Shown one piece after another: positions 17,071-62,416 of a stretch of 64,000 nucleotides of DNA. The notes below the pieces were generated by a model. The model had not been told where the DNA came from. It searched no databases and saw only the letters and a list, made by a program, of their open reading frames with translations. The DNA is taken from the NCBI GenBank assembly GCA_030141605.1, contig JAQGDQ010000113.1, positions 496,001-560,000 of the forward strand, written 5' to 3'. Both the position numbers and the translations under genes were made by a program. This stretch comes from Tubiluchus corallicola (lineage: Eukaryota > Animalia > Priapulida). The first letter of the stretch is position 1. Each line of letters opens with the position of its first letter.

Positions 17071-17368
17071 GCCCCCCCTCCTAGAATGATATAAAAAATT
17101 TCTAATAATATTTCTTAAATACTTTTAATATTTTTTGCACAGACCGACTGGTAAAACAGACAACAAGTACAACACAATATTTTACTTAAAAGATGCCTTA
17201 AACTGTGATTACTAATCAGTGGTCAGATCAAAGCAAGATGGCACCTGAGTATTCAGTCATATCCTTGTTTTCTTTTTCTTAAACAGATTCAAAGATGGAT
17301 GTTTTCTGAATTGCCACGCACTACTTTTCTGCTAATTAGGGACTCTGGAAATCCCCTTTGTTGGGTGG

Positions 17369-20242
17369 ATGAATGTGCCATTGAATGTCTTCATGACATG
17401 GCTTATCACTCAACTAGTTAGAAGTGCGATGTTTCCCAAGAACTTGGTAAAGCTGTACTCCAATAAACACGGGAATGGAACTTTGCATCTTGACACTTCA
17501 AACCTTTCCATCGTGTCAGATCCAGAGTTTTACGAAGAAGCCGGCACTGGCCATTTTCCAAATGAAATAGCCATACTTAGAGAACCGAATAAGACAACAG
17601 TGGTTGGCGTCATCAGCATGCATCTTCAATGTGACGAAGACGCCATTCAAATTGCTCTCGGGAACGAATCGTTTGCATTTTATAATCCAACGCAAGATAA
17701 ATTTTGCGAAGACCCTGACTGGTACTTCTATTACTGGCAAAATGACTACTATGATAGGGTGTACATCAGATTCTTGTCAGACGGGAAACCTACAAATCAT
17801 ACCGGTTTTGAAATTGTGGTCTATCGCATGAAATTGCCCAGACGTTGTGCAGAAGAGTACTGCTTGAATGGCGGACATTGTTTGGTAAACTACGGTATCT
17901 ATGCTTATTGTCGCTGTCCTCGGACATTTCATGGCGTGAGATGTGAAGAAATAAAAGACTTTTGCTTCTCGAAACCATGTTTGAATTCTGGTACGTGCCA
18001 TAATTATTTAGATCATTCTGTACATTTTCATTGCATTTGTCCGGCAGGATTTACGGGCGAATTTTGCGAAACAAGACAAGATCCGTGCTCGAAAAGTAAA
18101 TGTACGAATAGTGCAACTTGTATCAGTCATGGAATTTCATATTCATGTGAATGTTCAGAAGGATTCACGGGTGAATTTTGTGAAAGGAAACAAGATCCGT
18201 GCTTGGAAAGTAAATGTATGAATGGTGGAACATGTATCAATCATGGTAGTTTATATTCGTGCCGTTGTCCAAAAAACTGGACAGGTGAATATTGTCAGTT
18301 CGCGGACTTGTGTTCATCTCAACCATGTCTAAACAATGGTTCGTGTAACAATGATGTAAGCTTGTACATCTGTGAATGCGCAACAGGATATGGAGGGCGA
18401 CACTGCGAAACTTTTCAAGCTTGCTTTTCGAATCCCTGTCAAAATGGCGGACGTTGTGCTGATGGCAAAAATTTCTATACTTGTAAATGTGAGCCGGGCT
18501 TTAGCGGCATCAATTGTGAATTGCTGGATCACTGTTTTACGAACCCTTGCCAAAACAGTGGTACGTGTATCTATGACAAACTTTCGTTTTTGTGCATTTG
18601 CACAGAAGGCTACACCGGAAAAAGATGTGAGTCTTTTGACAGATGTTGGTCTAATCCATGTAAGAATGGTGCAACATGTCAGAGTGAAGAAGGCGGGTAC
18701 ACATGTATGTGCGTCTCTGGATATATGGGAGCTGAATGCCAATTACTAGACAAGTGCTTCTATAACCCTTGTTTAAACAATGGAACGTGCATAGATAGTG
18801 GAGACTCGTATAAATGCACTTGCCCATCGGGATATACTGGGAATGACTGCAGTGTTTTTAATGTCTGCTGGTCACTACCTTGCCAAAACAATGGAACATG
18901 CGCAACTATTCAAACATCTTACAAGTGTATTTGTACATCAGGTTATAGAGGAATAGATTGCAACGACGCTGTAACTTACGTTAATGAGAAAACATCAACT
19001 GCCTATGAGGAGACTGAAGGCAGCACAACTGGAAAAGATTCGAATAATGTAACAAGCACGGCCGCAGATAGTAAGACTGATTACAAGGCATTCAATGCTT
19101 GCTTATCATTCCCATGTCAAAACAATGGAACGTGTAAAAACAATGAAAGTATAAACCAGTACATATGTGATTGTCCAAAAGATTTTTTTGGTACCAATTG
19201 CAACTTTGAAAGCCGAAAAGTTGGCCTCGGTTCAAGCACCAAACAAGGAACCTGCCCGCCAGATACTGGTCAGTGTCCAAATGTCTCATGTGTCAAAGAC
19301 AGTGACTGTCCTAATGATGAAAAGTGTTGTGATTTCGAGGACTGTGGTAGACATTGTGTTCCACCACGTAATAAAAAGATTTCTATTCCCGAAAACAAAA
19401 CAGAAGCTACACATCCAGTTGAACCAACTAAAGATGATGCTTCAGAAAAAGAAAAGGACACTGATGCAATAGAGATTCTTGGATTCATACTGGCATCTTT
19501 CGTTTTTGTATTCATCGGTGTAGCGGGTACATTGCTTTATATTCGAGTAAAAGGTGGGCTACCATGTAAACAATGGACAGAGCGTGGAAGTTACTCTATA
19601 GAAGAAATCTATAATCCTTCGTTTCAAGAATATACTGTCAACAGTGATGACAGCAGCGTTGCTCCAGAAAAATCATCCAAAAAAGGATTTAAAGTTAAAC
19701 CGACTAGCATACTTTGTAATAACAAAGAGCAAACCCGCACTCTGGAAAAGCCGATACTTGAGCTTAATGAAGATGAAAACTGCGTTTATTCAAGCAATGA
19801 GACAGATGAGCAGTCACTAGAAGAACTTGATGGCAAATTTTCCTCTAAAGACGTTAATATAACCGTCAAACAGACCAGTGACAACAATTTTTTACACTCT
19901 CTCACATCAGAAAAAGTAAATGACGAAATTCCCAAAAGAATAACTAGACAGCTAGAAAAAAGTGCTAAGAATTCAGGCAGTGAAGTAACAGAGGAATCAT
20001 CGGGTGAAGTCACAAATGACGAAAACAGCTCTGAAATTAGTGGACAAGGATCAATTCAACAAACACATCAGAAACCAAATGCTGGAGCAACGGATTCTAA
20101 TAGTAATATAGTTTTTGATATGTTACTCACAGAACAACACACAGATGTAAAGAAAGACTGTAGCACAACGGCATCGGAGACAGACGGATCAACAGCAGAT
20201 CATACAGAAGGCGAAACCACTTGTAAAGATAACTCAGAATAA
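17369..20242 (+). CDS. Type I membrane protein: signal peptide, CUB-like domain, 11 EGF repeats, WAP domain, TM helix, long acidic S/T-rich cytoplasmic tail (957 aa, single coding exon)
   Basis: Uninterrupted ORF. CUB C-terminal motif VYIRFLSDG..TGFEIVVY; 10 tandem Notch-type EGFs plus one after an S/T linker; WAP-like CPPDTGQCPNVSCVKDSDCPNDEKCCDFEDCGRHC; TM ILGFILASFVFVFIGVAGTLLYI. A polypyrimidine-CAG acceptor at about 17287 suggests a 5' UTR intron. Confidence 0.9.
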   Translation: MNVPLNVFMTWLITQLVRSAMFPKNLVKLYSNKHGNGTLHLDTSNLSIVSDPEFYEEAGTGHFPNEIAILREPNKTTVVGVISMHLQCDEDAIQIALGNESFAFYNPTQDKFCEDPDWYFYYWQNDYYDRVYIRFLSDGKPTNHTGFEIVVYRMKLPRRCAEEYCLNGGHCLVNYGIYAYCRCPRTFHGVRCEEIKDFCFSKPCLNSGTCHNYLDHSVHFHCICPAGFTGEFCETRQDPCSKSKCTNSATCISHGISYSCECSEGFTGEFCERKQDPCLESKCMNGGTCINHGSLYSCRCPKNWTGEYCQFADLCSSQPCLNNGSCNNDVSLYICECATGYGGRHCETFQACFSNPCQNGGRCADGKNFYTCKCEPGFSGINCELLDHCFTNPCQNSGTCIYDKLSFLCICTEGYTGKRCESFDRCWSNPCKNGATCQSEEGGYTCMCVSGYMGAECQLLDKCFYNPCLNNGTCIDSGDSYKCTCPSGYTGNDCSVFNVCWSLPCQNNGTCATIQTSYKCICTSGYRGIDCNDAVTYVNEKTSTAYEETEGSTTGKDSNNVTSTAADSKTDYKAFNACLSFPCQNNGTCKNNESINQYICDCPKDFFGTNCNFESRKVGLGSSTKQGTCPPDTGQCPNVSCVKDSDCPNDEKCCDFEDCGRHCVPPRNKKISIPENKTEATHPVEPTKDDASEKEKDTDAIEILGFILASFVFVFIGVAGTLLYIRVKGGLPCKQWTERGSYSIEEIYNPSFQEYTVNSDDSSVAPEKSSKKGFKVKPTSILCNNKEQTRTLEKPILELNEDENCVYSSNETDEQSLEELDGKFSSKDVNITVKQTSDNNFLHSLTSEKVNDEIPKRITRQLEKSAKNSGSEVTEESSGEVTNDENSSEISGQGSIQQTHQKPNAGATDSNSNIVFDMLLTEQHTDVKKDCSTTASETDGSTADHTEGETTCKDNSE

Positions 20243-22218: not shown

Positions 22219-23057
22219 GTATAAACTTATATGGGACGTTTGTGAAGTCCGAATCTTCTATTCTAAAAGTAAATAGTCACCGAGTTTTACTACTGTTTAA
22301 TATACACTTCGAGTCATATACATCTTCAGTCTCATGGAGACGATCACACGGCTTATCTAACTAACCACACAAACGGTTAGAAGCCTATCACTTCATAGTG
22401 TCAGAAAATTAGTGCTGAAAGACACTCGAATAACCAGGCCAGGTGGCAGCATATTAACATTATGTGAAAGTTGTGCGGTTTAAATGCATGTACTATCTGT
22501 AAAGGTAATCTGCCATGCTGGTGGCAGCCAGGTGTCATTTGCAGCTCCGGATCCAGGACTTATTGTCAGGGAAAGCTTAATTTAAATAGTTGTGCAGGAC
22601 TGAAATCTCCAGATTTTTGGTTGATCTATTGTTTTTTGTGTTCTTAGACGACAAATTTTTATTAAGTTTTGGCCTAACGAGGTTTCTTCTAGCATGACTG
22701 CCCAGGTGAAAAATTATTACAAAAATTTAACCTATATAGGTCTACAATGTGCATGCCCAGCATCGGCACTGTATGAGGCTTGTAAGCACCTGTAATAATT
22801 AGGTTATTAACTACATGCAGGCACTGCATAGACCTTTTGGCATAGGTCTACACAATACATGCACATCTATGTAGTAGAAACATGCTATTTCTTTCCAGTA
22901 ATAATATGTTTGTCAAGCACTGAGACTTTGCTGTGCAATTAAATATGCTAACATTTAATACACTGCTTGGAATGGAACGTTCAGTTTCTTAGCTAAATAT
23001 TGTTTATTTTTTGCCTAGACTGAAGCCAGTCGATTCCACAAGAATAAAGACTGTCTT

Positions 23058-25109
23058 ATGGTGGCCGAGAAGCCATCAGTAGCGAAGTCTTTAGCAAAAA
23101 TTTTGTCTAATGGCAGTGCTGTTACACGAAAAAGTTCAAACGGCGCATGTTCCATCTATGAGTACACTGGAAAATTTATGGACAAAAATGTCAGATTTAA
23201 AGTCACTTCTGTCTGTGGACATGTTATGAATATCGTTTTTCAATCGAAGTTCACCAGCTGGAGTGGGAATCCAGCTGATTTGTTTTGGGCTCCCATTGAA
23301 AAAACGGAAACGTCGCCAAAGCTGAAAATACCTCGTTTTTTGGCGCAACAAGCAAAGGGGGCTGATTATTTAGTGCTGTGGTTAGATTGTGACAGAGAAG
23401 GTGAAAATATTTGTTTTGAAGTGATGGATGTGGTACAAGGTGTTATTTGTTTATCAGGCAATGACGAGCAAACAATTTTCCGGGCTCGCTTTAGTGCAAT
23501 CACCGATCAAGACATCTGGAATGCTATGGAGAATCTCGGTTCTCCCAATAAAAATGAAGCATTGTCAGTAGATGCTCGTCAAGAACTAGATTTAAGAATT
23601 GGTTGGGCTTTTACTCGATTTCAAACAAAGTACTTTCAAGAAAAGTATAGCAACTTGGCTGGCACAGCAATCTCATATGGTCCTTGTCAGATGCCAACAC
23701 TAGGCTTTTGTGTGAATAGGCACGATGAAATTAGATCATTTAAACCAGAGCCATATTGGGTTCTTCAAGCCCAAATTGAAGGGCAAAATGGTAACACAAT
23801 AAAGATTGACTGGAACCGCATCAGAGTATTTGACAAGGAGTTAGCTCAGATGTCTTTTAACAACGTGAAATGGCGTAACATTGCCATAGTAACAAGTGTC
23901 AATAAAATAGAGAAAGTAAAGCATCGCCCTCTTGCTTTAAATACTGTCGAGTTCATGAAAGTTGCCAGTTCTGCACTAGAAATGGCACCACATCACACTA
24001 TGATGGTTGCTGAAAAACTGTACACTCAAGGGTACATTAGTTACCCGCGAACAGAAACAACATCATATCCGGAAAACTTTGATTTTCTGGGGACACTTCG
24101 GCAGCAAGTGGTTTCCAAAGAGTGGGGAAATGTCGTGTCAGCACTTTTGGAATCTGGAATTCAGAAGCCTCGAGAAGGCTACGACGCAGGTGACCATCCA
24201 CCCATTACTCCACTAAAGTTTGCTAGTGAGGTAGAAGTTGGCTCAGAAGGGTGGAAACTATATGAGTACGTCACTAGACATTTCATTGCTACTTTGTCAG
24301 CAGATTGTCATTTCTTGCAGACAAACGTCACATTTTCTGTTGGAGCTGAAAAGTTCACATTAATTGGTAAAGAGGTGACTGATCCGGGTTATACAGCACT
24401 GATGACCCAGCAAGCAATTCCCGCAGAAGAGAATCTGCCCCCCTTTCAGATAAATGACTTATGTCCTTTGAAAGATGTGAAACTGTTAGAACGCAAAACC
24501 AACCCTCCTAATTATTTAACAGAAAGTGAGGTTATAACGCTGATGGAAAAGCATAGCATAGGCACAGACGCTAGCATTCCAGTTCACATAAACAAAATTG
24601 AGCAGAGAAACTATGTTACAATCGGTGCTGGTCGTAGACTAATACCAACTCCTCTCGGAATTGCCCTGACATATGGATACCAAAAAATTGATCCGGAACT
24701 CATACAGCCCCATATGAGGTCTGCCATGGAGGAGCAATTAAACCTGATTGCTCAAGGTAAAGCCGAGTTTCAAGCTGTTCTTCAGAAAGCCCTGGAAATA
24801 TTCAAGCTGAAATTCCAAAATTTTGTTACACATATTGGCAAAATGAATGAATTATTTGAATTGGCAGAACAGCAGCATGTATCTGCAAAAGTGCAGCACC
24901 AACCAAATACGCCATCAACTGTCACACGAGGAAGAGGACGGGGCAAATCTAGAGAACGTGCGCTATCAAAACCAAAAAGTAAAAAGCTGCAAGTAGGTAA
25001 AGCAGCTCGTGCACAACAGGCACACCATCAATCAGCTGTGTCAATGGCCACACGTGGAAGAGGACGGGACAGATCTCGAGGACGTGGGCAAGAAAAAGTC
25101 AAAAAGTAA
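23058..25109 (+). CDS. TOP3B: DNA/RNA topoisomerase III beta-like (type IA), intronless, C-terminally truncated with RG-rich tail
   Basis: MVAEKPS (Toprim), VTSVCGH, WLDCDREGENICFEV, ARQELDLRIG, SYGPCQ, active site GYISYPRTETT, DAGDHPPITP, IGTDASIPVHI. No C4 zinc ribbons; ends in RGRGRG repeats. Confidence 0.9.
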   Translation: MVAEKPSVAKSLAKILSNGSAVTRKSSNGACSIYEYTGKFMDKNVRFKVTSVCGHVMNIVFQSKFTSWSGNPADLFWAPIEKTETSPKLKIPRFLAQQAKGADYLVLWLDCDREGENICFEVMDVVQGVICLSGNDEQTIFRARFSAITDQDIWNAMENLGSPNKNEALSVDARQELDLRIGWAFTRFQTKYFQEKYSNLAGTAISYGPCQMPTLGFCVNRHDEIRSFKPEPYWVLQAQIEGQNGNTIKIDWNRIRVFDKELAQMSFNNVKWRNIAIVTSVNKIEKVKHRPLALNTVEFMKVASSALEMAPHHTMMVAEKLYTQGYISYPRTETTSYPENFDFLGTLRQQVVSKEWGNVVSALLESGIQKPREGYDAGDHPPITPLKFASEVEVGSEGWKLYEYVTRHFIATLSADCHFLQTNVTFSVGAEKFTLIGKEVTDPGYTALMTQQAIPAEENLPPFQINDLCPLKDVKLLERKTNPPNYLTESEVITLMEKHSIGTDASIPVHINKIEQRNYVTIGAGRRLIPTPLGIALTYGYQKIDPELIQPHMRSAMEEQLNLIAQGKAEFQAVLQKALEIFKLKFQNFVTHIGKMNELFELAEQQHVSAKVQHQPNTPSTVTRGRGRGKSRERALSKPKSKKLQVGKAARAQQAHHQSAVSMATRGRGRDRSRGRGQEKVKK

Positions 25110-29964: not shown

Positions 29965-46931
<16,967 letters not shown>

Positions 46932-46986
46932 GTTTAGTTTGCTTATTGTATGTCCTAACTGAAGTAGAAGTTTTTATGTCTGTGAT

Positions 46987-47012
46987 AAGTACTGCAGCAG
47001 TGTCTGCATCTT
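46987..47012 (+). promoter_or_regulatory. Iron-responsive element (IRE) in the NRAMP/DMT1 3' UTR
   Basis: AAG-U-A-C-UGCAG-CAGUGU-CUGCA-U-CUU: CAGUGN loop, perfect 5-bp upper stem, unpaired C, then A-U pair, U bulge and AAG/CUU lower stem. Confidence 0.75.
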
Positions 47013-47058
47013 TGGGTTTAAATCTCGTGAGGTCTGTTTTTTTAAACACAGTTTTTAA

Positions 47059-47260
47059 GATATGGTTTGTAAGTTGCAAAAATTTATCTATTGATTTTAT
47101 TTTGTAAACTTTACCAATTTTATTTAATGAAAAAGTTTTTGAACGTTTTTAGTATAATAGGGTATGGTTTGTAAATTGTAAAAATCTGTCTATTGACTTT
47201 ATTTTGCAAATTTTGCCAATTTTATTTGTGAAAAATGTTCCTGCAAGTTTTTAGTATAAT
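47059..47260. repeat. About 100-bp tandem duplication in the NRAMP 3' UTR
   Basis: tatggtttgtaa..tctattga..ccaattttattt..gtttttagtataat occurs twice in direct orientation. Confidence 0.85.
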
Positions 47261-50200
47261 CAATGTAAATAACCAGACTGGAAATCGTTAAGCAAAATTT
47301 TCGAAGTCCTACTTTGGACAAATCTGTCAAATTGCTAAAAACATCTGGAAATTAACATTTTCTGGAAAAAGTGTTTACATTCAAGACAAGTGCTGAAACT
47401 TTTAGCATTCAAAGTGAAAAGCTGAAGATCAGTTTTGTAGTTTCGAATGATAAAACGATATGACACAGCAATACAAAGTTCAATTGTTTCTTTAAACTAG
47501 GGCCCAGGCTTAACTACACAAAAAATATTTTTTGTTCCAGTTATTCGTTTTACCCAAAATATTTGTTTTTAATCTTTGAAATAATTAATTTTTAATATTT
47601 CCTCACCTCTTTCTAACATTATTAGTTGATCTCGCTTGTTGCCTGAATCAACTTTTGTAATTACATTTTATTACCAATTTACTGTTGTATATGAAATCTA
47701 ATTGTGTTTACACTTTAGGTAAATCATGCTACTTTTTTATTTTATATCATTAAATAGCCAAAAGTGGGTTAATATCAGTTACTCATAATTAATCAGAGAT
47801 CGAATTTTTCTTTCTTTTTGATGATTCCCACGAAACATATTTTTATTTTGTTATATTGTAAAACCTAACGTGAACAGTCTAAATAAAACTGATTTGTATG
47901 TGAGACTTGTAGATGCATACAAAGTATATACAAAATTAAATGGCAATTTACATTAGCAAAAATGCATTATTACTGTGAGTTAAGTAATAATCTAACTAAT
48001 TTGAACTGCTAAATTGAACTTTTATTCAGAATGAAGCTCTCGGAAAGCGGACAATTTTATGGTCTACCAAAATCTAGATTAAAAAAATTGTGCCACTGGC
48101 AAAAAGTGTTAAGATTTTAGTAATCTGTTGAAACGATAACTAATTAATGCTTCCATTTAATCACATAAATTTTCATAATATGCGAGTGACATGATCAGAC
48201 TTAATTTATGTGAAATTAAGCTGAAGAAATAATAGGATTGAAAAACAACAGTAGAGTCACATAATTCAGAACATATGTCTAGTATTCTTTGTATAATTCT
48301 ACTACAGGACTATGTAGGATGGTGACTAAGATCATTTAGTGAATGAAATTATTGATAATTTTTAAAATTTTATTTAAAAACAATCTATTTCTACATGAAT
48401 GTATTAGGTTTATGAATTTTAATAATTTTATACGTAGAAAATATAAAGATAATCAAAATAAGTCCAGCTAATCAGTTGGAACAGGGATTACATTGTATAT
48501 AATGGGTATTTTTAAATGCATACGTTGTTGTTATTAGGTTAACTAATTGAATTAACACTCCAGTCATAGAATGGGTTAAAAATTTGTATTTTGTTTGTTG
48601 TTGCATGTACCCTGTAAATCATACATTTTTGCATGTTTTGTAGTATACTTATGTTGGTTTATATCCTTTAAGACATCTCTGTTTTTGCAACAACATCTGT
48701 TTCGCAAGACAGGTGATATTGTGTATTTTTAAATAAATGTATTAAGCTTAATTTCATTTGCTCTTTGATAATAACCTTATTTATGCATTCATTTCTAATA
48801 CTAGTTACACACATATACACTATATCATGTACGAGCATATGTTCGAAAATAAATGCTGCTGAATATCCAGATTTAAAATCAGGTGATATGAATCTTCAGT
48901 TCGATAGTTAACTAATTACTTCTGCAGTTTATAAACTCTGATGATGACAAAGTCATTTACCTCAGACTCCCGTAACTACAAATGTGCCAGCTTTGTCTGT
49001 TACATAAGCAATGGCAAATAAACTTTATCGTCTTCACTTTTGTGATACATCCGCTCTTGTCAAATATTTTTACTATAAAATCGCAGAATATTACTGTTAA
49101 TATTACCGATATTGCTTATCGTGCCCAAAAAAGTGTACCAGTTGGATGCTAATGCAACATAAACTGTTTATAGGAATACAGTGTTTCATACCTGTAAGTT
49201 TTATTCAAATATTCACAACTACGAGCAATGAGAATCCATCAAATACTTTTCTATTGAAAAATTTTGAATACGATTGTATAAATGACTACAATACTGTACA
49301 AAATTACAGTACAAAAACTGATATTATACAAAATGCATATCCCAACGTGATCTACACTTGTTATTATGTGTCTAGCATTAAAACCTCAATAAATAAACAC
49401 ACATTTACCTAAAAGGCACAACCAACGGTATCAATAAATACAGCCCAGCCTAACTTCATTTTGTGCATAGAGGCAGCCGACAAATCATTACTTGCTAACA
49501 CTACTACAAACCAACATTCGATAAAATTTGTCTTGAACAAATGTGGAAAGCCAGCTAAAAATATAATTGCTTTAACGTGCCCGGATTTTAGGATTCTAAG
49601 AAATTCGTTATCTTACAAATAATACTTACAAATGATACAAATTTTTCACAAATAGCCAAAACTGAATTTCCCCCAAATACATGCAGCTGATCATAATTCC
49701 AAAAACGTCCCAACATATGAAAAGTACTGTTTGAAATCCGATACATTTGCATAGATTTATGAAAATCAGAAGTATTTGAATATCATTTACAGCAGGTTAG
49801 AACTACAAGTGAGATCTATGTACACAAAGGTGATGATGTTATTATCTACTATCACGTGAAAACTAAATCTTAAATTATAATTAATAAAATGACATAGTTT
49901 GTGTAAACTAAATACCCGATCTTGACTATTTTATCTAAAAAGTGATACTATGAAATTAAATATCAGTTTGCAAGACCGTAGAGACTATAAATGCTACCCA
50001 CAAAAAATGGTATCTAAAACGATTAAAAACACAACCTAGAATCACATGATAATCAAACATATGATAATATAAGACATAATTAAAAAAAAAACTATAAACA
50101 CGTTTAGTAATATTATTAATGACAATATTAGTACAATATATATATTTTTATATACAGCACCATTACATATAGTTACTCAACTTACTAATGTTTGATTATC

Positions 50201-51168: not shown

Positions 51169-54100
51169 TCAGTTGCCACCATAAGTTGGGTTCTTGAAGG
51201 TTGAAGTCGCTTGTTTATAAATAGGGTTCTCTCCCTGAAAACAGATTACAATAATTTTTATACAAGTCTATTGATTTAGCGGTTAATCACCATATTTACT
51301 ATTCAAAGTGAAGCAAAACTAACAGACTGCACATTAATGCATCTATATCCATATAAAAATAAAGTTAAACACAAAAAATCAATTACACAAAAACACTAAT
51401 TATTCAAAAGGGTTAGACTTCCCCGTTAAGTACATAAGCCTTGCAGAAAACCAGGAGAGAAGAGGAATAGCCAGGAAGCTTTAGAAAAAAGTGCGGCTAG
51501 TCCTACTATCAACCACAGTTAACAATATCAACAGAAAAATGGAAAAATGATTTACCGTATCCCACTTGGCGTTTTGTCTTTCTTTCTCAAACTTTGCAAA
51601 TTCTCGCCGATCATGTATCGTCGTTAATAATTTCCAAATGAGTAAAAGAGCAAGACCTACGGCAACGATACCACCGACGACACCGGCAATAATGGCAGCT
51701 ACGTTAATTGGTGGCGGACATACCTACAGGCAAAATGCAGCAGAAGTTACATAATATGTTTTAATGTAACTTTATTAATAATAATTTAAAACTTAATGTA
51801 CTTCAAAATAAAATAGCATTCATTCTGAAGAGAACGAATACAGTGAAAATAAATGAAGTTTACAAGTAAAGATACTAAATTTTCTTTATTCAATGTTACA
51901 GCACTTACAAAAAAACAGAACTTGAACCTGACACAGTCAAACCTTGTTATACTGCCTGCAAAATGACCAGGAACGAAACGGCTGTGTTCAAATATGTGTA
52001 GAAATCACACATTATACCACCTCCTGTTACCAGTCATCCGCCAGGCAAATTAATATACATGTTCACTAGGGAAATACTGCCAACAGTCTCAATTAGCATC
52101 AGCAGCTTCTCAACATAATGCCAGCTGTACAAGTCTACTACATGCTCTGCTGAGTCGCCAACTTTGGCCAGACATCACAATATAAAACATGTTATCATGT
52201 TTTGATTGTTTGCCAGTACTCAGTACATCGTACAATTACCACAATATTACGAAGTCATAAAGGCAACTGACAAGAAAACACATGATCTTCTTCCGCAATC
52301 AAGAAATGTGATATCTGCGTGTTTTCTGAGAATCATCCAAACAAATAGCAGCAAGAAATTTATAGTTGTGACAATCTTTTTTACATAATACATGTTTAGT
52401 GGGGCAGTAGATGTTCACTACAGTCTATTATATAGTTGAGTGAATGACATGTATATAATGAAAACAAAAAAATTCTTAATAAACATGACTAATTTTGAGT
52501 TTGTCATTAATAAACACATAACACCAAATTTCTTCTGGTCCGAAAGTGAGGGGCATAAAATGGCTTAACAGTATTATCATGTAAACATGATTTTCCATTT
52601 TAACGCAATTTTTTCTAAAGTGACAAAATCGATTCTGCATGTAATTCTGATTAAAACTGCATAACAAAATGCTGCACAAACAGCTTACCTTTGTTTCTTG
52701 TGCTTGTATAAATATCACGTCTGTTTGCGTGTCGTTGTACTCATAAGTGAAATAAAATGTGCAACCGTCATCACCTTTAAACTGACACAATCGTCTCCCT
52801 TCCTCTAAATCTTCTACAAAAGATAATGAAAACAAAGTTCACAAATAATAATACAAAGTGAGATCATATGAAAATAAAAGTAAAGTCACATGACTCAATA
52901 TACCACGTATATGCCTCAATATGCACTGCCACGTAAGTAATAAAAAAAAACTGAAAAATTAGCTCTCAAGAAAATTTTTACAAAAATGAGTGAATTTACA
53001 AGGTTTTCAATTTACTGTGTAAATGAAGAACAGCCACACAAAAATGAATAATCTGCTGTAAAACTAGCACACACCACATTAAATTTTATATTAACACACC
53101 ACAAACACTTGACAACCATTTACACCTATCATATATCAATAATGTACAGTAGACAGATAGAAAAGATAATTCCAGCACTGTCCCAAAACAGCAAACACTT
53201 GAAGCAAAGAATATTACATAAAAAAATCAGAACACGTGCAAAAAATTATGTACAAGTGGCAATTTTTATGCTCTGCAGTATTCAGGAAATTATGAATAAT
53301 GCAAGCAATGCTTTAGAGCTCCTTGTTTAGTCTTGGCCTACCATAAAATTTTTGCAATTTATACACAAATAATGTTACAACAATTAGCAGGGATGCCACA
53401 TTAAGCAAGTAGCAATTTATTTTGTTTGGGACACCACATTAGTAATAAAAAGATATTAACATTGCATTTTAATGATAAAGGTACTTTTATGGCTTGCACG
53501 AATATCTAAAATTCACAGACTAATTTATTTTATGTTCAAATTAAATATCATAATATTACCCGAAACTTTATCCACCTTTACAATTGTAAGGTTAGAGCAG
53601 TGTTTGTCACACTCTTCCTTTGTCTTATAATCCCCGCTTTCATGCACGACGCATTGTACACAAGCTCTGTTCTCATCACACTGGCCTTGGCAAGTTGGGC
53701 AATCCTCGCATGTCGGTCCGCGGAAGAGACTGTCCGGGTCGCACTTGCAACGCCCACATTCGCATACACCGTGTCCTAGTAGAAGGTACAGATTTGGAAA
53801 GGTAACATTTTGAAACACATGAGAAATACAAGCTTTTTTCTTCAAAATTACTTTATTATCAGAAATAAACTACTTCAAATATATACTGATAGTTATGAAA
53901 TGTATCTCAAAACAAGAAGTCATTTACATGTTAATTATACACTTGTTTTGAAAGTGGATCCTTTTAATAAACACTAAACGTCAAGTCAAGTAAGTTACTC
54001 AATCAAACAAACTTATGACAAGATAATAATTCTCTTAAACACAGACCTGCACAATATTTTCCATTGGAAGCCATACAAGTTTCATTGGAAGACGGACACT

Positions 54101-57100
54101 GGCAACGATCACCAGCGTACTGCGGCAAACAGTCGCACTTCCCGCAGAAACATGACCCCCTGCTGGATCCACCACAGATCAGGCCATTGTAGACGCCACA
54201 GGAAAAGTTGTCACATTCGCAGTAGTCACCCCAGACCTTCTCACCAGGGTTCTGATAAACAAATGAAAAACGCTTAGAAAAGACTGAAAGCAAAACTCAT
54301 TTTTACCAGTTAGTACAAGTATGCATCTGTATCCATCTATTATAAAGTAGATGTCATCATTTTCAGAAGAAAATGCACATCTATTGTTAATATAAACGAT
54401 AATCGTCATACTATCAATCAGCTAATACAGTTGCCTAGCATTCTTGTGTAAAATACAAAACATTGAGCACAAGCCTGCTGAGTTTTTGCACCTCCCTTTA
54501 CGCGATACTTTGTGCCTAATCTTTCATTCCCACAAAATAATCTCATTTCCTGCTTTTTCCCATGACTTACACTTATAAACTTTAAACTGTATTACTGATA
54601 ACCATTTTAAATTTTGTTTCTTTTGATTTCTAATTCTAATAATTTTGTTAGCATGTGTTGAAAATCTAAAATTATTTATTTCTGTGATTATCTTACAAGT
54701 GTACAGCAGTCTCTACTAGTAAGTAAGCAACCATTTTCTGTTAACGTATATCGGGAAACCGTAATCAAAAATACTCACGTCTCTCACGTAGCACTCACAT
54801 TCTCCACATATGCACTCGCCACGTCCGTAGCACACGGGTGCGTTAGTGTCGTTTGACAACCGGCAGGTTATGTCGCTGGCATCTCCAGCATATTTCTCTG
54901 CATCACATTCACAATGTCGACCCTTGAATCCGGGTGGGCAAGAACAAATACCGCATTCATACGTGCCAGTGCCATTACAATAGGGGCTATTCGGTTTTTC
55001 ATTTTCCGGTTTCTCACAGTCACATTCACAGATGACATCTAATTTTATCACAAGCTCCTCATTGATGTTGACTGGCTTGATTTTCAATTCCGTCTTGCCG
55101 TCCTTTGGACAGCCATTGACAGTAACAGTGATATCAAAGTTAACCTGAAAGAGCAAGTCACAAGTTAATTGTATTTATTTGGCTTCCTAACTACCAAACA
55201 GTGAACACTAGTGGTGAGACATTTTCACATTTGATTAATAGGAAACGAAGTTGATTTGTAATTGACCATAATCGGTTTTTAGGAATAAGAGATAAGTAAT
55301 TTCGAAACTTTAAGAGAAGGAACACGCACGAAAACTTTGTGCTTATATTAATGAGAAACTTTTGCACTATGGAGGTGATATAGGAGCGCCATGTTACTAT
55401 GCAAAGGCAGAGCCATAGAGGGAATACTATTAGATTTTACCATAATGATGGCTATATTTGATGTACAGATTTTGTGGATTTTCCAAAAGATAAGTTGAAA
55501 ATGGTACTGGTAATACAAACTATTTGCACAGACAGTTGAAAAAATATGCGATAACTGAAAATAACTTAATCTCGAATTGAATATTACTGATTAAATTGAC
55601 TTATTGGTCCCACCAGTACTGTACATCACGTACAGCAAACCCAGAACACTTATAGATTGGTGGGCCCTTCGTTTTGACTTGCTTCTCATAATTTCTTATC
55701 GATGATTTTAGCAGTGAAAATCCTTCCATTAGAAATTGAAAAACATTCTTATGTACTCTTTCGAACTGCACATATAATTATGCCATTTGCAATTTGCAAA
55801 ATCAATATAACACAATTTCTTTTCTAGATTTTACGGATAAACTATTTGTTCTAACTATAACATTTAATGATTCTAGGTGAGTTAAGACAGATAAAACTAC
55901 TACATACCGTATCCCCTACTTTGAGTCCCAGGCATTTGTTGCTGTCAACCACTTCCGTACCTAGGCAGCTGGTTCTATATTTCACTGTCACATTTTCTGG
56001 TTTATTGTCTGTTAATATCAACTCCGAGCGAATTTTCTACAAAAGCAAAACAAGACCTGTACTTCGACACAACTTAGCCATAACAAACAATAATAACAAA
56101 GTGCTAAAATAGAATTTGATTCCAAGTGGCTGGCCACCAGGAAATGACAAAGATAAGAGACGATAATAACATGGTCTCCTTGGAATTAGTCCTGTAATAG
56201 ATGTTACAGGAAGCAAAATGGTGTAAAAAACTTACACACATCTACAGAGGCAACATCACAGAACCTCACAAGTAAGCAAAAGCAAAACGGTACAGCAAGT
56301 CTCTTCACAGAATGATTTTGTAATTTTCAGTTTATGTTCAAGAAGTACTTCACGTCCAGCAAAAAAAGAACTTTTTTCTGATTCTTTGCTGAATATTGGC
56401 TTCAAACTAGTTAAAATTTGTATACACCACCTGAAATCATACACGAAAACTATTTATAGCTCAACAGTTTTTCAACATTCAAAACCTTATTACTTACATC
56501 GTAGTTTTCCTGCACAAGATCCACAATATTTGAAGAATCATTCGCAAGAATTCCGGCGGTTGATCCGTCAATCAATTTGCGCAATTCTTCGTACACATCG
56601 ATCGTATTCTCCGTCACAGCAAAAATCAGGTTCACAGACTTTTCCTTCACCATGCTGATGAGTTGACTAATAGAGGGGTAGTCCTAAAGTAGTCATAATA
56701 ATCAATTACACATTTGTGAAGGCTAAACAATAAGCAGGGGAATGCTAAATGACTAGCTAGGAATTTTGTCAAATCTCATCATGGTACACTACACATTTCT
56801 AAAGTTTGCAGTATGCTGTCCCACTTCTTAAAATTAATCTCAAGTGGCACATATTAATTACAAAGTACATTTTTCTTTTCTGTTCATGTACTCAAATGCT
56901 TTTTTCTCCAATTTGAGATTCAAGTTATTTGGCTCTATAACTGCTAGAAACATGGAAGATACTATTTTGAATGCAATCAATCTACTAGTCATAGGCTGTT
57001 GTAGATCAAAACAAAGAACAGTGAAAATGCAAAAAATAAAACTAGACTGTTATTTATAACTAAGTCATAAACTTAAGATTACATCGAGACCCTTCATTTG

Positions 57101-60100
57101 ATACACTACAAGCTAATATTTTTCAATACTGGGAAAATATCTGTGCCCGACCCACCCATTTTCGGTTTTTCCCCTAGCAGAAAGTTTTTCACTAAACAAA
57201 TAATTCATATTCAACCATGCACAAGAACTTGACCCACCTAGTGAAATATCAAAAATTGCAGCCCTAGCTCAAAAACTGTGTCAGCAGACTACAGCCTAAA
57301 GAAAAATAAATGAACACTCGTCCATTCCATTACTTTTGACCCGGCATTCTCGGATGACACATAAACATCGTTTATTTTACCTAAGGTTGACCCACTTAGG
57401 TATTCTGTACTGTATTACAGAATATTAATTATGAAGATTTATAGTAAAGCAAATCCAAAAGCGTTAGATACAGGAAAACATTCACATACCAGCTCTGTGC
57501 TCATTGTGTACTCGTTGTTCCTCATGTGGCAGTGACCATCATTGGGCTTCACTATCCCTCCCAACTTGCCATCGCCGGCATAGTGAAAACTGGCATCCGT
57601 AGAAAAGATTACCAAATGCCGTGCCGCCTTCCGCCAACCAATCTCGTTTTCACAAGCGATGGCTTGAATTAGAGCGTCCATTCCGCCTTCTGGTGAATCA
57701 AGATTACCAGATACGGGGACCTCATTCACTTTTTTCTAAACAGAAACACAAAAATGAGTAAATTTACTAGTTGCAATGTTAATCTAAGATGTATTCGCCA
57801 TACACGAGAGGTAACACAAAAAACATTAAGCGTTTTCAAAAATGATAATTAAACCTGTCGATCAGTTTAACACACTGACGTCACGCCATTATCCTAGGGA
57901 TTTTTTTCCAATTGCCGAGTACGAAATAACACGTAGCAGCACTGTAGCTAGCATACGATGCGGAAAATGTCTGCTCGAAATTAAAAATCCTACAGTATTA
58001 TGCCATGTCACATAAGTGCAAAGTGCATACACAAGCAGCAGCCAACTGCTAGAAAAGGTTTTGGATAAGTTGACGGACTGACAAGCTTTCCTGAGCAGGT
58101 TATATTGGCACTTTCTCAACTAAGCTTATACTCATTGCAGCAGTGGGTAAATCGCCACCTTGTTACTAGTACGAGAATAAAAACTCATGGTTAACAGTCA
58201 CTGTGTTAGAAGCACTAGCACTCTTTCCTTTAAAGAAGCGGGCAAAAGGGGAAAACAATTAATAATAAAGTAAAAATAAATAAAGAATAAGTAAGAGTGT
58301 GTAACATTTAATGCAACTCCATGTCATATAGAAAACATTGGTGTGGGGTTTTTCGGCTTAACTGTACAAAAATAGATGCTTCTTTTTTCACACAATCTGG
58401 CACCCTGCAAGCAGAAATCCAGTACTCAATGGCAAAACCTACTTAATGTGGGTGGGAGTGACAGGACCAAAACCTAATTAACTATCAAGTCTTATCCTCT
58501 GGCATTGGCAAGCATGTGAATACATCCCCAACTAGCTAAACAGCCATTATCCCTACTGCGAATAAAATCTCTTAGAGCAAGTATTTAATTCAGCAATTGC
58601 ACATACATTCGCTGACCTATGTTGCTCAAGTGTTGATCAACATTGGTTGCAAAGCAAATGGTAGCCATTGGGAGGCCTACAACCTATTAAACAACATTCA
58701 ACAGCAATTCACATAAAGACCTAAAACACAATATGTAACACAAACTAAAATGATTCAAAAAAACTTACCGCAAATAACGGAGTATCTACAGTCAGCGACA
58801 AGTGGTTTTTGAAGCCATAGGGAGCAGCACAACCTGTGCACGGCTCGTTCAGTTTATCTGGCACAGTGCTTACGTAAGGCATCACTGTCTTATCTACAAA
58901 CGATCCAAAACCCAGACGGAAATTCTTCGTTATTTCTCTCATCTTGTCAGCTGTAACAATGAAAGCTTGTAACTTAGTTTGAGAAACTTATGCTTGTGGC
59001 TTTCGTAGTAAAACTATTGAAATTATTGCTGTACGGTCCACGGCACATTGTAGCTAGACGTTGTACAATGTTTTCCTTGTAAAATCTATTTGTCAATGAA
59101 GATCTTGGGAATTATGAAGACTTGAATAATAATGTCAAAATACACGTTGTACTTAACGGAGTTGAAGACAGTAGGATCTCAGTAAATTATAAGATATTTA
59201 CTGTTGGGCATAATTATATTAAAGAAACTAAATGTTTTAACTTAAGCTAAATTCAATATTTTCACTTGGTAATATTATGTATTATTACATTCGTTTGCCT
59301 CATACTTACTAGATTGCGACTGTCTTTTTCATTAAATTTTATTGCACTTGTCTAATTGTTACATAGATCCTAATTGTACACTTTGTCTTTCATGTATTGT
59401 ATTTGTATTACCTCTGTAACCACAGGACTTTTGTATCAGTTTTACTGTATGTCCAAAGGTTGTACAATAAATATGTTCAAACTAATAAAAGCTTAGCAGT
59501 CTAACAATTACTGAACCCACGATTTTGATATGTCATCAAATCGTGTGCATATTCACACGCCATAATACCAAGAATTGAAATTCAAATATACTTAACTACA
59601 ACTAGAATGGAAATTCAGAATTCAGACTCCTTAAAGAAATGGAATGCACCTGGTTGTGTATAAAGTTCATGTGAAATTAATTTTGCTGCTCATGCTTACA
59701 AATGTAGTAATATGCACAGACAAGTTCTTTTTACAACAATCCTCTGACAGAGAGCAAATCACTGCATTTTATTCTTTTATTTTTTTCTGAAACCTAATAA
59801 TAACAAAATTCAGAAATTACTGCAACTTACGTAAATATGTTTAACAGCAGCAATAATAATCAGAGTAGTAACTCAAAATCATTACAGCTTTGAAAGGACT
59901 GGTAGTGAATTCAAATTAATTAAAGTAAACAAATCCACAAATGATGAAAATATAAAAGTTACTAGTTAAACCATACCAAGCAGATCACCGAGCGCAGCTA
60001 CTCGATCCTTGTCATCTTTCATGGAGTTGGACAAGTCCATAAGATAGTACAAGTCAACAGGGTAGTCCTCAGCTTGTCGATACTGCATGGTGATTGTATA

Positions 60101-62416
60101 TGGATTATCTATAAAACACAAAATCACGTATATTCCAACACATTGCTTTTCACACAATTATCATATCAAAAATAACATTTGAGCAGTTGCCAGATTACCC
60201 AAAGTTTTCTTAGTAAGGACTAATGGCTTTCTCTATATAATAAAAACGTTTAAAAAACTGCACTGGATTAAGTGTTATTAACGGTTTTAATATTCTTAGT
60301 AAATGCCTCACTAAATAACTTTTTATGAGATGTTACACCTAATCAAAAATTTTCAACTATGAATTTAAATAAAAACTGTTATTGTATCAATAATGAACAA
60401 AAGCCACACCAAGTACAATTTATAAATGCACACTGATCTCTCAAATTTATTTTGTTTTATCATGGATGCAGAATGTATATAGCTGTGAGGATATTAGCTG
60501 AGTGGTGACAGTATGTGCTTAGCGACAAAAATGAAACAATGTCATGTCTGCTTAGTAAATAGAGGGCTGACTACCAGGATAAGTGCTTCTGAAAGTGAGG
60601 AATTCTATCTGCCATACTACCCTGAATAAACACCTCTTCTGGGAGGGTCTAAGAACATGGCTAAGCTGTCTCTGCCTGTTCACTATCTCATCTTACAAAA
60701 TTATGAAGAGATAGGTTCTGGTCCTACCAGAACAAGCTACATTAGGGCAAACACTCAATGACCATTTTCAACTCTCTAGGCCCTAGATAGCATGGCATAA
60801 ATAAAAAATAAAACAGTGAAAACACCTGTCACATGAAAAGTATAACAAACTGGGGCTACTTGCAGCGCTTACACTGCTTAGGAGCCATGCACATATAACG
60901 ATATTAAGTTACGATAGGTGGCAGGAGATGCGATAACTCCATTATAACACAAGGTAGGAAGGTCTTCGAAATTGGCTGAAAACTTGATATCATTATATGT
61001 GGATGGCCCCTTAGGAAAATCAAACATCAAGTGTATCAACTCACTTGGTCGGATCTTTAGAGACATTTCTTGAGGATGGACTTGAACCGCTTCCTCGTCT
61101 GGACCGACGGATCCCTCCGTCAACGGATCAGCTTTGGTGATATCTTTTTCTGTCGTGGGGTTAGTTATATTCACCCTATCACAACCTTTAGCAGCTAAGT
61201 TACTGTACGTGTCACAACGTGTGCCATCAATGCCCTAGATAAAAAATATCGAACTGGAGAAGCTAATACATAAAAATCTGCATCATTTTTTATGTAGATA
61301 TATAATATGGAAAAATTGTATGGAAAAAGAAAAGGAAAGATTCTAGGTCAAGCTAAAAATTTATGCGATTTTTTGTGCCTTATTCAAAAACTGCATCATT
61401 TACAACGTAGATACACAATATGAAAAAATCACGTGGAAAAAGGAAAAGAAAGATTCCATGTACAGCTGAAATTTTATTCGATTTTTGGTGAATTATTCAA
61501 TTCTCAAATTTAAATTACATTTTAAAAACAATTAAAGGACTTCAAAATCATCACATGCTGGTAATACCAAAAATTCAGGGAATTAATTCCTAAGTACATC
61601 AAGTAAACTGCACAGTGTGTGTTAACCAAAACTTGCCTTTTTCATGTATAGATGACTACTTGTAAATATAGACCTGACGAATTAAGCAAATAAAGGTTAA
61701 AACAAACAAAGGTGCAAATGCTCACTCCCAGTATCTGAACGTGAGTTAAAGCAAACTCATCACACTAAATGTTTTCTCAGAATCTCCAGTTACATAATGC
61801 CTTAAAAATCCACACTGAATTATAGGTTTTGTAAAAATTAGACCCCAATGTTTTTGTAGATATATGTTATTATACGATAATACTGACTCACAGAAACTCA
61901 CATTTTTTTCTTAACAACAGGCCAGGTTTTTTTAATAGATGAGGTCAATATGAAAAAAATTACTAGACTAGAAATTAGATAATTTCTACATTCATCACTT
62001 TGGTTAATTAATATAATTGATCAACCTAAGCAAAGCAATTAACTGGTAAGAATATAGCAATTAATTTGATTAAAAAATATACGTAAATGTTAACTAGACT
62101 ATGAAATAGATAAATAAATAATTATGTGGTGCAAACATTTTAATCATTAAGGGAGTGAGTTACTGCATAAATCTTGTTTGTATACTACAGCAATACCGGC
62201 AGAGCACATGTACCACACAAATACTGTTATATTGTTGAACTATAAAAATAACCAAACACTTACTTCCTGTTCACACCAGGCACAGTTTGGATTTGAAGTT
62301 ATACATATAGCACAGGTTTTATAAGATGTACACTGATTGGAAGAGGAGACTTGGTCCTGAGATAATACACTTGTTACAGCATATAACACAAATACTAAAC
62401 ACACTGACAGTCTCAT
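51169..62416 (-). CDS. Integrin beta subunit (beta1/betaPS-like), 787 aa, 13 coding exons: 62264-62416, 61045-61234, 59977-60108, 58769-58950, 57490-57735, 56498-56683, 55908-56036, 54779-55144, 54047-54251, 53560-53775, 52689-52813, 51556-51723, 51169-51234
   Basis: Phase-consistent joins (2364 nt). Signal peptide [22 protein letters not shown] (CAWC), [50 protein letters not shown] repeats, [14 protein letters not shown] and NPIY/NPTY motifs. A 5' UTR intron acceptor lies at 62431. Confidence 0.95.

Follow-up and report, generated by a model that had tools for sequence, protein, structure and literature searches.

Past the predicted stop codon of an NRAMP/DMT1 (SLC11) gene in the priapulid Tubiluchus corallicola lies a hairpin with the core of a canonical iron-responsive element (IRE). 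Our analysis showed that this core is canonical and rare, and that its occurrence exceeds chance. We give a probability of roughly 50% to the view that the hairpin is a genuine IRP site, gained by convergence, through which low iron raises NRAMP. The window that we analysed is the whole stretch of DNA, 64 kb in length, and all coordinates refer to it.

A canonical and rare IRE core

46987..47012, + strand: whole hairpin, with a weak lower stem (U6 bulge and three pairs), 55 nt 3' of the TAG
46991..47009, + strand: IRE core n7-n25, with A7-U25, bulged C8, five Watson-Crick pairs and a CAGUGU loop

On re-reading of the window, the sequence, coordinates and 55-nt spacer of the hairpin proved to be exactly as first described. 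The 5' arm consists of AAG (46987-89), U (46990), A7 (46991), C8 (46992) and the upper-helix strand UGCAG (46993-97), followed by the loop CAGUGU (46998-47003), the 3' arm CUGCA (47004-08), U25 (47009) and CUU (47010-12). Five core features of IREs are listed by Volz 2021 (PMC8466369), namely C8, a five-pair helix, C14-G18, the AGU triplet and a U19-type position, and all five are present in this hairpin. The loop provides the cross-loop pair C14-G18, the triplet A15-G16-U17 is found at 46999-47001, and position 19, where U or C is required, is U (47003). The upper helix has five Watson-Crick pairs and no G-U pair, and the bulged C8 is unpaired in the minimum free energy (MFE) structures of both the 26-mer and the 41-mer, having no G partner because n25 is U. 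The host is a metazoan, and by the gene model the hairpin has sense orientation (+ strand) and falls within the predicted 3' UTR.

The bare pattern C-N5-CAGWGH is common, with 40 matches in the window, both strands counted, versus 25.6 expected, and we therefore applied the SIREs core rules instead. For this, we used our own implementation after PMC2896125, which covers the canonical motifs 1 and 2 and excludes the 16 SELEX motifs and the quality score; motif 1 calls for six pairs, at most two of them G-U, and an n25 other than G. This hairpin passed the rules and was the only match on either strand of the window, a perfect core with no G-U pair and n25 = U. The claim of the preliminary description that it is the only well-formed IRE in 64 kb thus stands for SIREs motifs 1 and 2 on both strands, and is limited to those motifs.

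Such cores are seldom produced by shuffling. When one strand of the window was dinucleotide-shuffled 150 times, a shuffle contained on average 0.49 any-class cores and 0.033 perfect ones; an all-Watson-Crick core never arose. Shuffling the 100 nt that follow the stop produced a perfect core in 2 of 20,000 trials, and the corresponding counts for longer stretches of the UTR were 0 of 4,000 for 969 nt and 4 of 4,000 for 1,939 nt. By this measure, chance would place a perfect core in the initial 100 nt of about 1e-4 of UTRs, and somewhere in about 1e-3 of UTRs 1.9 kb long. The analytic rate per 2 kb was 3e-4 for perfect cores and 6e-5 for strict ones.

The NRAMP/DMT1 host gene

34853..46931, + strand: NRAMP/DMT1 (SLC11) gene, 12 coding exons located, start exon not found
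34853-34987, 35657-35779, 35875-36101, 37566-37704, + strand: NRAMP exons 1-4
39920-40075, 41007-41165, 41683-41769, 42072-42191, + strand: NRAMP exons 5-8
43027-43250, 43664-43823, 46038-46079, 46797-46931, + strand: NRAMP exons 9-12
46797..46931, + strand: terminal coding exon, in frame after a TTACAG acceptor and ending in TAG (46929-46931)

Joined together, the exons encode 568 aa with no internal stops, with AG at every acceptor and ten GT donors and one GC donor; the latter belongs to a GC-AG intron and lies at 42192, 3' of exon 8. Pfam PF01566 (Nramp) matched six of the nine exons scanned, and the predicted protein contains the motifs DPGN and MPHN, in keeping with the earlier assignment of this gene to animal NRAMP/DMT1. 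DPGN and MPH are named as NRAMP/SLC11 motifs in PMC8041893. The top full-length protein match was from Priapulus caudatus (73% identity over 540 aa, 817 bits versus 739 for the runner-up), with an alignment that extends to residue 549 of the whole protein, and the two sequences formed one clade with 100% local support in a FastTree phylogeny of 80 rows. Priapulus is an ecdysozoan (Scalidophora), and there were no kinorhynch or loriciferan names among the NRAMP protein matches, so that the protein comparison points to a priapulid or a different scalidophoran.

The local match of the last exon to the Priapulus tail is weak (8 of 24 residues identical, E 0.064), with tail lengths that are similar, and a single C-terminus that agrees with the spliced form here is common to all three listed Priapulus isoforms. 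Because of this resemblance in tail length and this shared ending, the predicted TAG stop is probably right, and exon 46797-46931 with its stop, as originally proposed, fits the Priapulus tail.

The NRAMP introns contain high-copy interspersed repeats at 37767-38354 and ~41778-41855, recognised by their very high summed read depth and numerous loose ends, and the repeat at 37767-38354 is also present in the diverged sequencing runs X5 and X6. Tail to tail with NRAMP is a multi-exon integrin beta gene on the - strand (~51484-61234), with Pfam matches on four of its five pieces. Two intronless frames on the + strand lie elsewhere in the window. One is a 696-aa type IA topoisomerase ORF (23019-25106; Pfam Topoisom_bac and Toprim) with an RG-rich tail, located in an intron-rich genome and resembling a TOP3B retrocopy. 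The other is a 968-aa frame (17336-20239) that carries a WAP domain along with numerous EGF repeats, an unusual combination, and the hydrophobic stretch after these domains may be a membrane helix.

Lower stem, Rfam models and competing folds

No Rfam family matched the whole 64-kb window at gathering score, and a search of 2.7 kb (46800-49500) at E<=10 returned no IRE, just three unrelated chance matches. When 81 nt around the hairpin were searched, IRE_II (RF02253) matched at model positions 8-24 alone, with every upper pair kept and the lower stem unaligned, at 16 bits against a gathering cut-off of 30, while IRE_I (RF00037, ferritin type) had no match at E<=10. The Rfam comparison suggested in the preliminary description therefore came out against the hairpin, and its label of a canonical IRE is apt for the core, which is canonical and rare by chance, but overstates a sub-threshold Rfam match.

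The hairpin had also been described as having the same geometry as the UGC/C internal loop of ferritin. The hairpin can indeed be drawn with an unpaired U6, a single pair and a bulged C8, as in the ferritin 5' IRE, but the latter has G7-C25 and a 5' location, in contrast to the A7-U25 pair, short lower stem and 3' location found here. We give this likeness no weight, because IRE_I fails to match and the lower stem is no better than that of random flanks. We kept the core fixed and drew 3,000 random flank pairs from the UTR. Judged by energy or by number of base pairs, 40-64% of these flanks did at least as well as the real lower stem in seven of eight comparisons, and 30% did so in the eighth. 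A lower helix is an additional criterion of Volz; four pairs can be drawn here, a level that 40-64% of the random flanks also reach. By eye, most of the 38 classic IREs tabulated in PMC8466369 have longer lower stems than this one.

Of the structure as originally drawn, C8, the five Watson-Crick pairs and the loop were recovered, but the lower stem is absent from the 37 C MFE (-3.2 kcal/mol versus -5.1 kcal/mol for the upper helix alone). In a 31-mer at 37 C, pair probabilities were 0.82-0.93 in the upper helix, 0.07 for A7-U25 and 0.28-0.39 for the three lower pairs; at 5 C they were 0.28 for A7-U25 and 0.62-0.79 for the lower pairs, and the whole hairpin forms mainly when cold. Longer sequences allow another fold:

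46941..47017, + strand: competing long hairpin that takes the IRE 5' arm, in the MFE of 46932-47060

The pair probability of the upper helix varies from 0.00 to 0.96 with sequence context, and in five contexts of at least 129 nt at 37 C it was 0.01-0.19 in three and 0.56-0.90 in two. Across six contexts, the cost of forcing the IRE was 0.3-2.9 kcal/mol at 37 C and 0.1-6.8 kcal/mol at 10 C. Folding z-scores were unremarkable (-0.28 to +1.34).

Possible inclusion in the transcript

46945..46953, + strand: donor-like site ATT/GTATGT, intron start 46948, which could splice the hairpin out
46080..46151, + strand: in-frame intron 11 read-through, 23 aa and then TAA at 46149, with ATTAAA at 46283
47749..47887, + strand: first common poly(A) hexamers 3' of the hairpin (ATTAAA 47749, AATAAA 47882)

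In the interval from the stop to the hairpin, none of 12 poly(A) hexamer variants occurs, and the first one further on is AATGAA at 47126, which suggests that the hairpin lies within the mature mRNA. Further along the predicted 3' UTR, 44 nt past the hairpin, is a 102-nt tandem duplication with 81% identity (47056-47259). Using a matrix built from the 11 donors of the NRAMP gene itself, we obtained a score of 6.7 for the donor-like site at 46948, a value reached by 3 of 301 background GTs, while the true donors, left out in turn, scored 3.8-11.0. The post-stop sequence TAG/GTTTAG was rejected as a donor, with a score of -2.3 that is matched by 67% of the 301 background GTs.

The intron 11 read-through might, speculatively, represent an IRE-less isoform with an alternative C-terminus. 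Near the same junction, alternative C-termini are known from NRAMPs of chiton, oyster and scallop. Nothing in Priapulus matched the read-through tail. A match of run X5 into intron 11 (46032-46161) appeared to hint at a conserved read-through exon, but we set it aside because the same run also enters the intron after exon 5 by 86 nt (39897-40161). Of the four sequencing runs compared with the window, X1 may be the one that it came from. Reads of run X4, which resemble the same species, cover the hairpin bin at a depth of ~5, and the diverged runs X5 and X6 have depth 0 over 46624-47124, to which we attach no weight as regards conservation.

Distribution among animal NRAMPs and comparison with known IREs

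To place the hairpin among other NRAMPs, we used the best 80 of 257 metagenome loci. An ORF was present in 78 of these and reached at least 500 aa in 56, leaving out 24 loci that were ORF-less or shorter; 39 fell in the animal clade (17 outside it), 33 were non-redundant (6 redundant), and in 24 of them the sequence continued for 85 nt or more past the stop (9 had less). A C8 or G8 core was found in 0 of these 24 (17,806 nt scanned across all 33), an absence that holds just for the part seen, since many of the 3' ends are short. SIREs-type matches past the called stop occurred in two of the best 80 of 257 loci, neither with a perfect core: L007 at +3 from the stop, bulged, with two G-U pairs and inside a longer hairpin, and L074 at +1991, with a mismatch and an ORF below 500 aa. 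An arthropod-like NRAMP transcript (L037) carries a hairpin 27 nt past its stop with a CAGUGA loop, five Watson-Crick pairs and A at position 8; it had no match in Rfam and is either a chance hairpin or a variant element. The smf genes of C. elegans (PMC2773845) and the DMT1 of a sponge (PMC7034838) have been reported as lacking an IRE. From the sequences compared, an NRAMP 3' IRE appears not to be a general invertebrate feature.

The mammalian DMT1 (SLC11A2) 3' IRE is likewise a single 3' UTR element of this gene family, with C8 and a CAGUGU/C loop. It has an extra 3' bulge in the upper helix that is not found here (by eye, three DMT1 rows of PMC8466369), and the stem sequence of our hairpin is unrelated and its lower stem weaker. 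In mouse Dmt1, the IRE form retains exon 16 and the IRE-less form splices to exon 17 (PMC7523796), whereas here it is the distal exon, reached by splicing, that carries the candidate IRE, and a read-through form, if there is one, would be IRE-less. The preliminary description had left both convergence and an older origin open. Because the stem sequences are unrelated, the 3' bulge is absent and the other invertebrate NRAMPs compared lack the core, we disfavour an older origin shared with the mammalian element, and a convergent gain in this lineage seems likelier. Convergent gain of IREs is an accepted, scattered pattern (PMC3708341, PMC3904948).

Other IREs offer further points of comparison. 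CDC14A (classic) and sponge NAALAD2 (predicted) also have one canonical core in the 3' UTR, in different genes; the former is described as not widely conserved (PMC3048577), and the latter (PMC7034838) shows that predicted invertebrate 3' IREs have already been published, although it has no Infernal score in Table S2 of Volz 2021 (PMC8466369). In mouse, the coding sequence of Egr2 contains a core nearly identical to ours that is graded only as "IRE-like", and the ferritin IREs of crustaceans and polychaetes have G8 (both PMC8466369).

In the literature that we searched, mostly outside subscription journals, we found no report of an invertebrate NRAMP 3' IRE, and the invertebrate IREs with binding data in the literature examined are 5' translational elements (ferritin, SdhB). 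DMT1 makes up 3 of the 38 classic rows in the Volz tables (PMC8466369), all of them mammalian, and 0 of the 83 IRE-like rows in those tables is an invertebrate NRAMP. A 3' UTR IRE has been claimed for the Nramp of common carp (as cited in PMC5946104), which is also an IRE-like hairpin in the NRAMP 3' UTR of a non-mammal, but from another lineage. The statement that the DMT1 IRE is essentially confined to mammals is thus roughly accurate for validated elements, and has to be relaxed for this fish claim. Pacific oyster DMT isoforms are said to have a 3' IRE, of which we found no report in the literature searched; if this is right, the hairpin is not the first invertebrate case, just the first ecdysozoan one. 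We know of no earlier ecdysozoan NRAMP 3' IRE, and to our knowledge the validated 3' IREs are all from vertebrates.

A possible role in iron uptake

We infer that the hairpin places NRAMP under iron control. In low iron, worm IRP1, the cytosolic aconitase without its Fe-S cluster, would bind the candidate IRE and presumably capture the IRE fold from the competing hairpin, and the bound NRAMP mRNA would be protected from decay, live longer and give rise to more transporter. Hemerythrin is an iron protein. It circulates in priapulids (PMC7771090), which makes an iron demand and tight control of uptake plausible. In its cluster-free state, IRP1 holds on to C8 and to the AGU triplet, and the five-pair helix sets the distance between the two (PMC8466369). 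Binding of IRPs to IREs works in Drosophila (PMC3708341), and in crayfish and earthworm but not in C. elegans or Schistosoma (PMC4184891); by analogy with the first three, priapulids likely keep an RNA-binding IRP1. Stabilisation as the outcome is the weakest step, which we extrapolate from TFRC and from Dmt1 of juvenile mice. Deletion of the Dmt1 3' IRE lowers mRNA post-transcriptionally in mouse pups, but in adult mice the element represses translation instead of stabilising, and it failed in reporter assays (PMC7523796; see also PMC3048577).

The hairpin could instead be a chance look-alike, in which the palindromic CUGCAG beside CAG yields a five-pair helix and the right loop with no selection and no IRP control, and we consider this unlikely, though a serious contender. 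It would be consistent with a lower stem of random quality, z-scores near or above 0, the sub-threshold Rfam score, the competing fold and the absence of the core from all 24 other animal NRAMP 3' regions scanned. For each mollusc gene set, SIREs returns ~119 "high" IREs (PMC7850002), the majority of the 83 IRE-like claims in print do not pass Infernal (PMC8466369), and any scan over a great number of windows is bound to come across chance cores in iron genes. The per-gene rate, however, is 1e-4 to 1e-3, the window has no second core where about one of any class is expected on two strands, and the all-Watson-Crick class is missing from the 150 whole-window shuffles. We favour a real element despite its poor lower stem because our prior for a real 3' IRE in an invertebrate NRAMP, a soft estimate of our own at ~1-2%, compares with that per-gene chance of 1e-4 to 1e-3. 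The softness of this prior, the many "high" calls of SIREs, the failed IRE-like claims and the near-copy in mouse Egr2 are the reasons that we do not rate the look-alike as less probable still.

A real IRP site might also have an effect other than stabilisation, such as damped translation or tissue- or stage-specific fine-tuning of NRAMP. The mouse Dmt1 3' IRE represses translation in the duodenum of adults and leaves spleen and kidney unaffected (PMC7523796), and single 3' IREs act unlike the TFRC array (PMC3048577, PMC7523796), but up-regulation is the one clear low-iron logic for an importer, and we regard such an effect as quite improbable. It is more doubtful again that the hairpin lies outside the main mRNA, spliced out from 46948 or bypassed by intron 11 read-through, and has a function in a minor isoform at most. 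The donor-like score of the 46948 site, the open 23-aa read-through with its ATTAAA and the alternative C-termini of the three mollusc NRAMPs would fit this, while the donor matrix was built on only 11 donors, all three listed Priapulus isoforms share the C-terminus that fits the spliced form, and the read-through tail is unmatched in Priapulus.

Implications for iron regulation in animals

With a single, unconfirmed 19-nt core as its support, the hairpin is a good candidate addition to the known IREs, and would act by a mechanism that is not new. Our tentative view, held with somewhat less confidence than that of an IRP site raising NRAMP, is that a scalidophoran worm independently evolved a functional NRAMP/DMT1 3' IRE, and that the control of iron import by IRPs through a 3' element has had two or more origins in animals, on the same gene. 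The worm may also have its own switch between IRE-plus and IRE-minus isoforms, with a polarity opposite to that of mammals. If the convergently gained IRP site is real, the mRNA-fate arm of IRP control would operate in an ecdysozoan as well, and the hairpin would be a clean example of one RNA element recruited repeatedly to one gene. As a single 3' IRE free of the extra bulge, it would also serve as a probe for the still-unsettled action of the mammalian DMT1 element.
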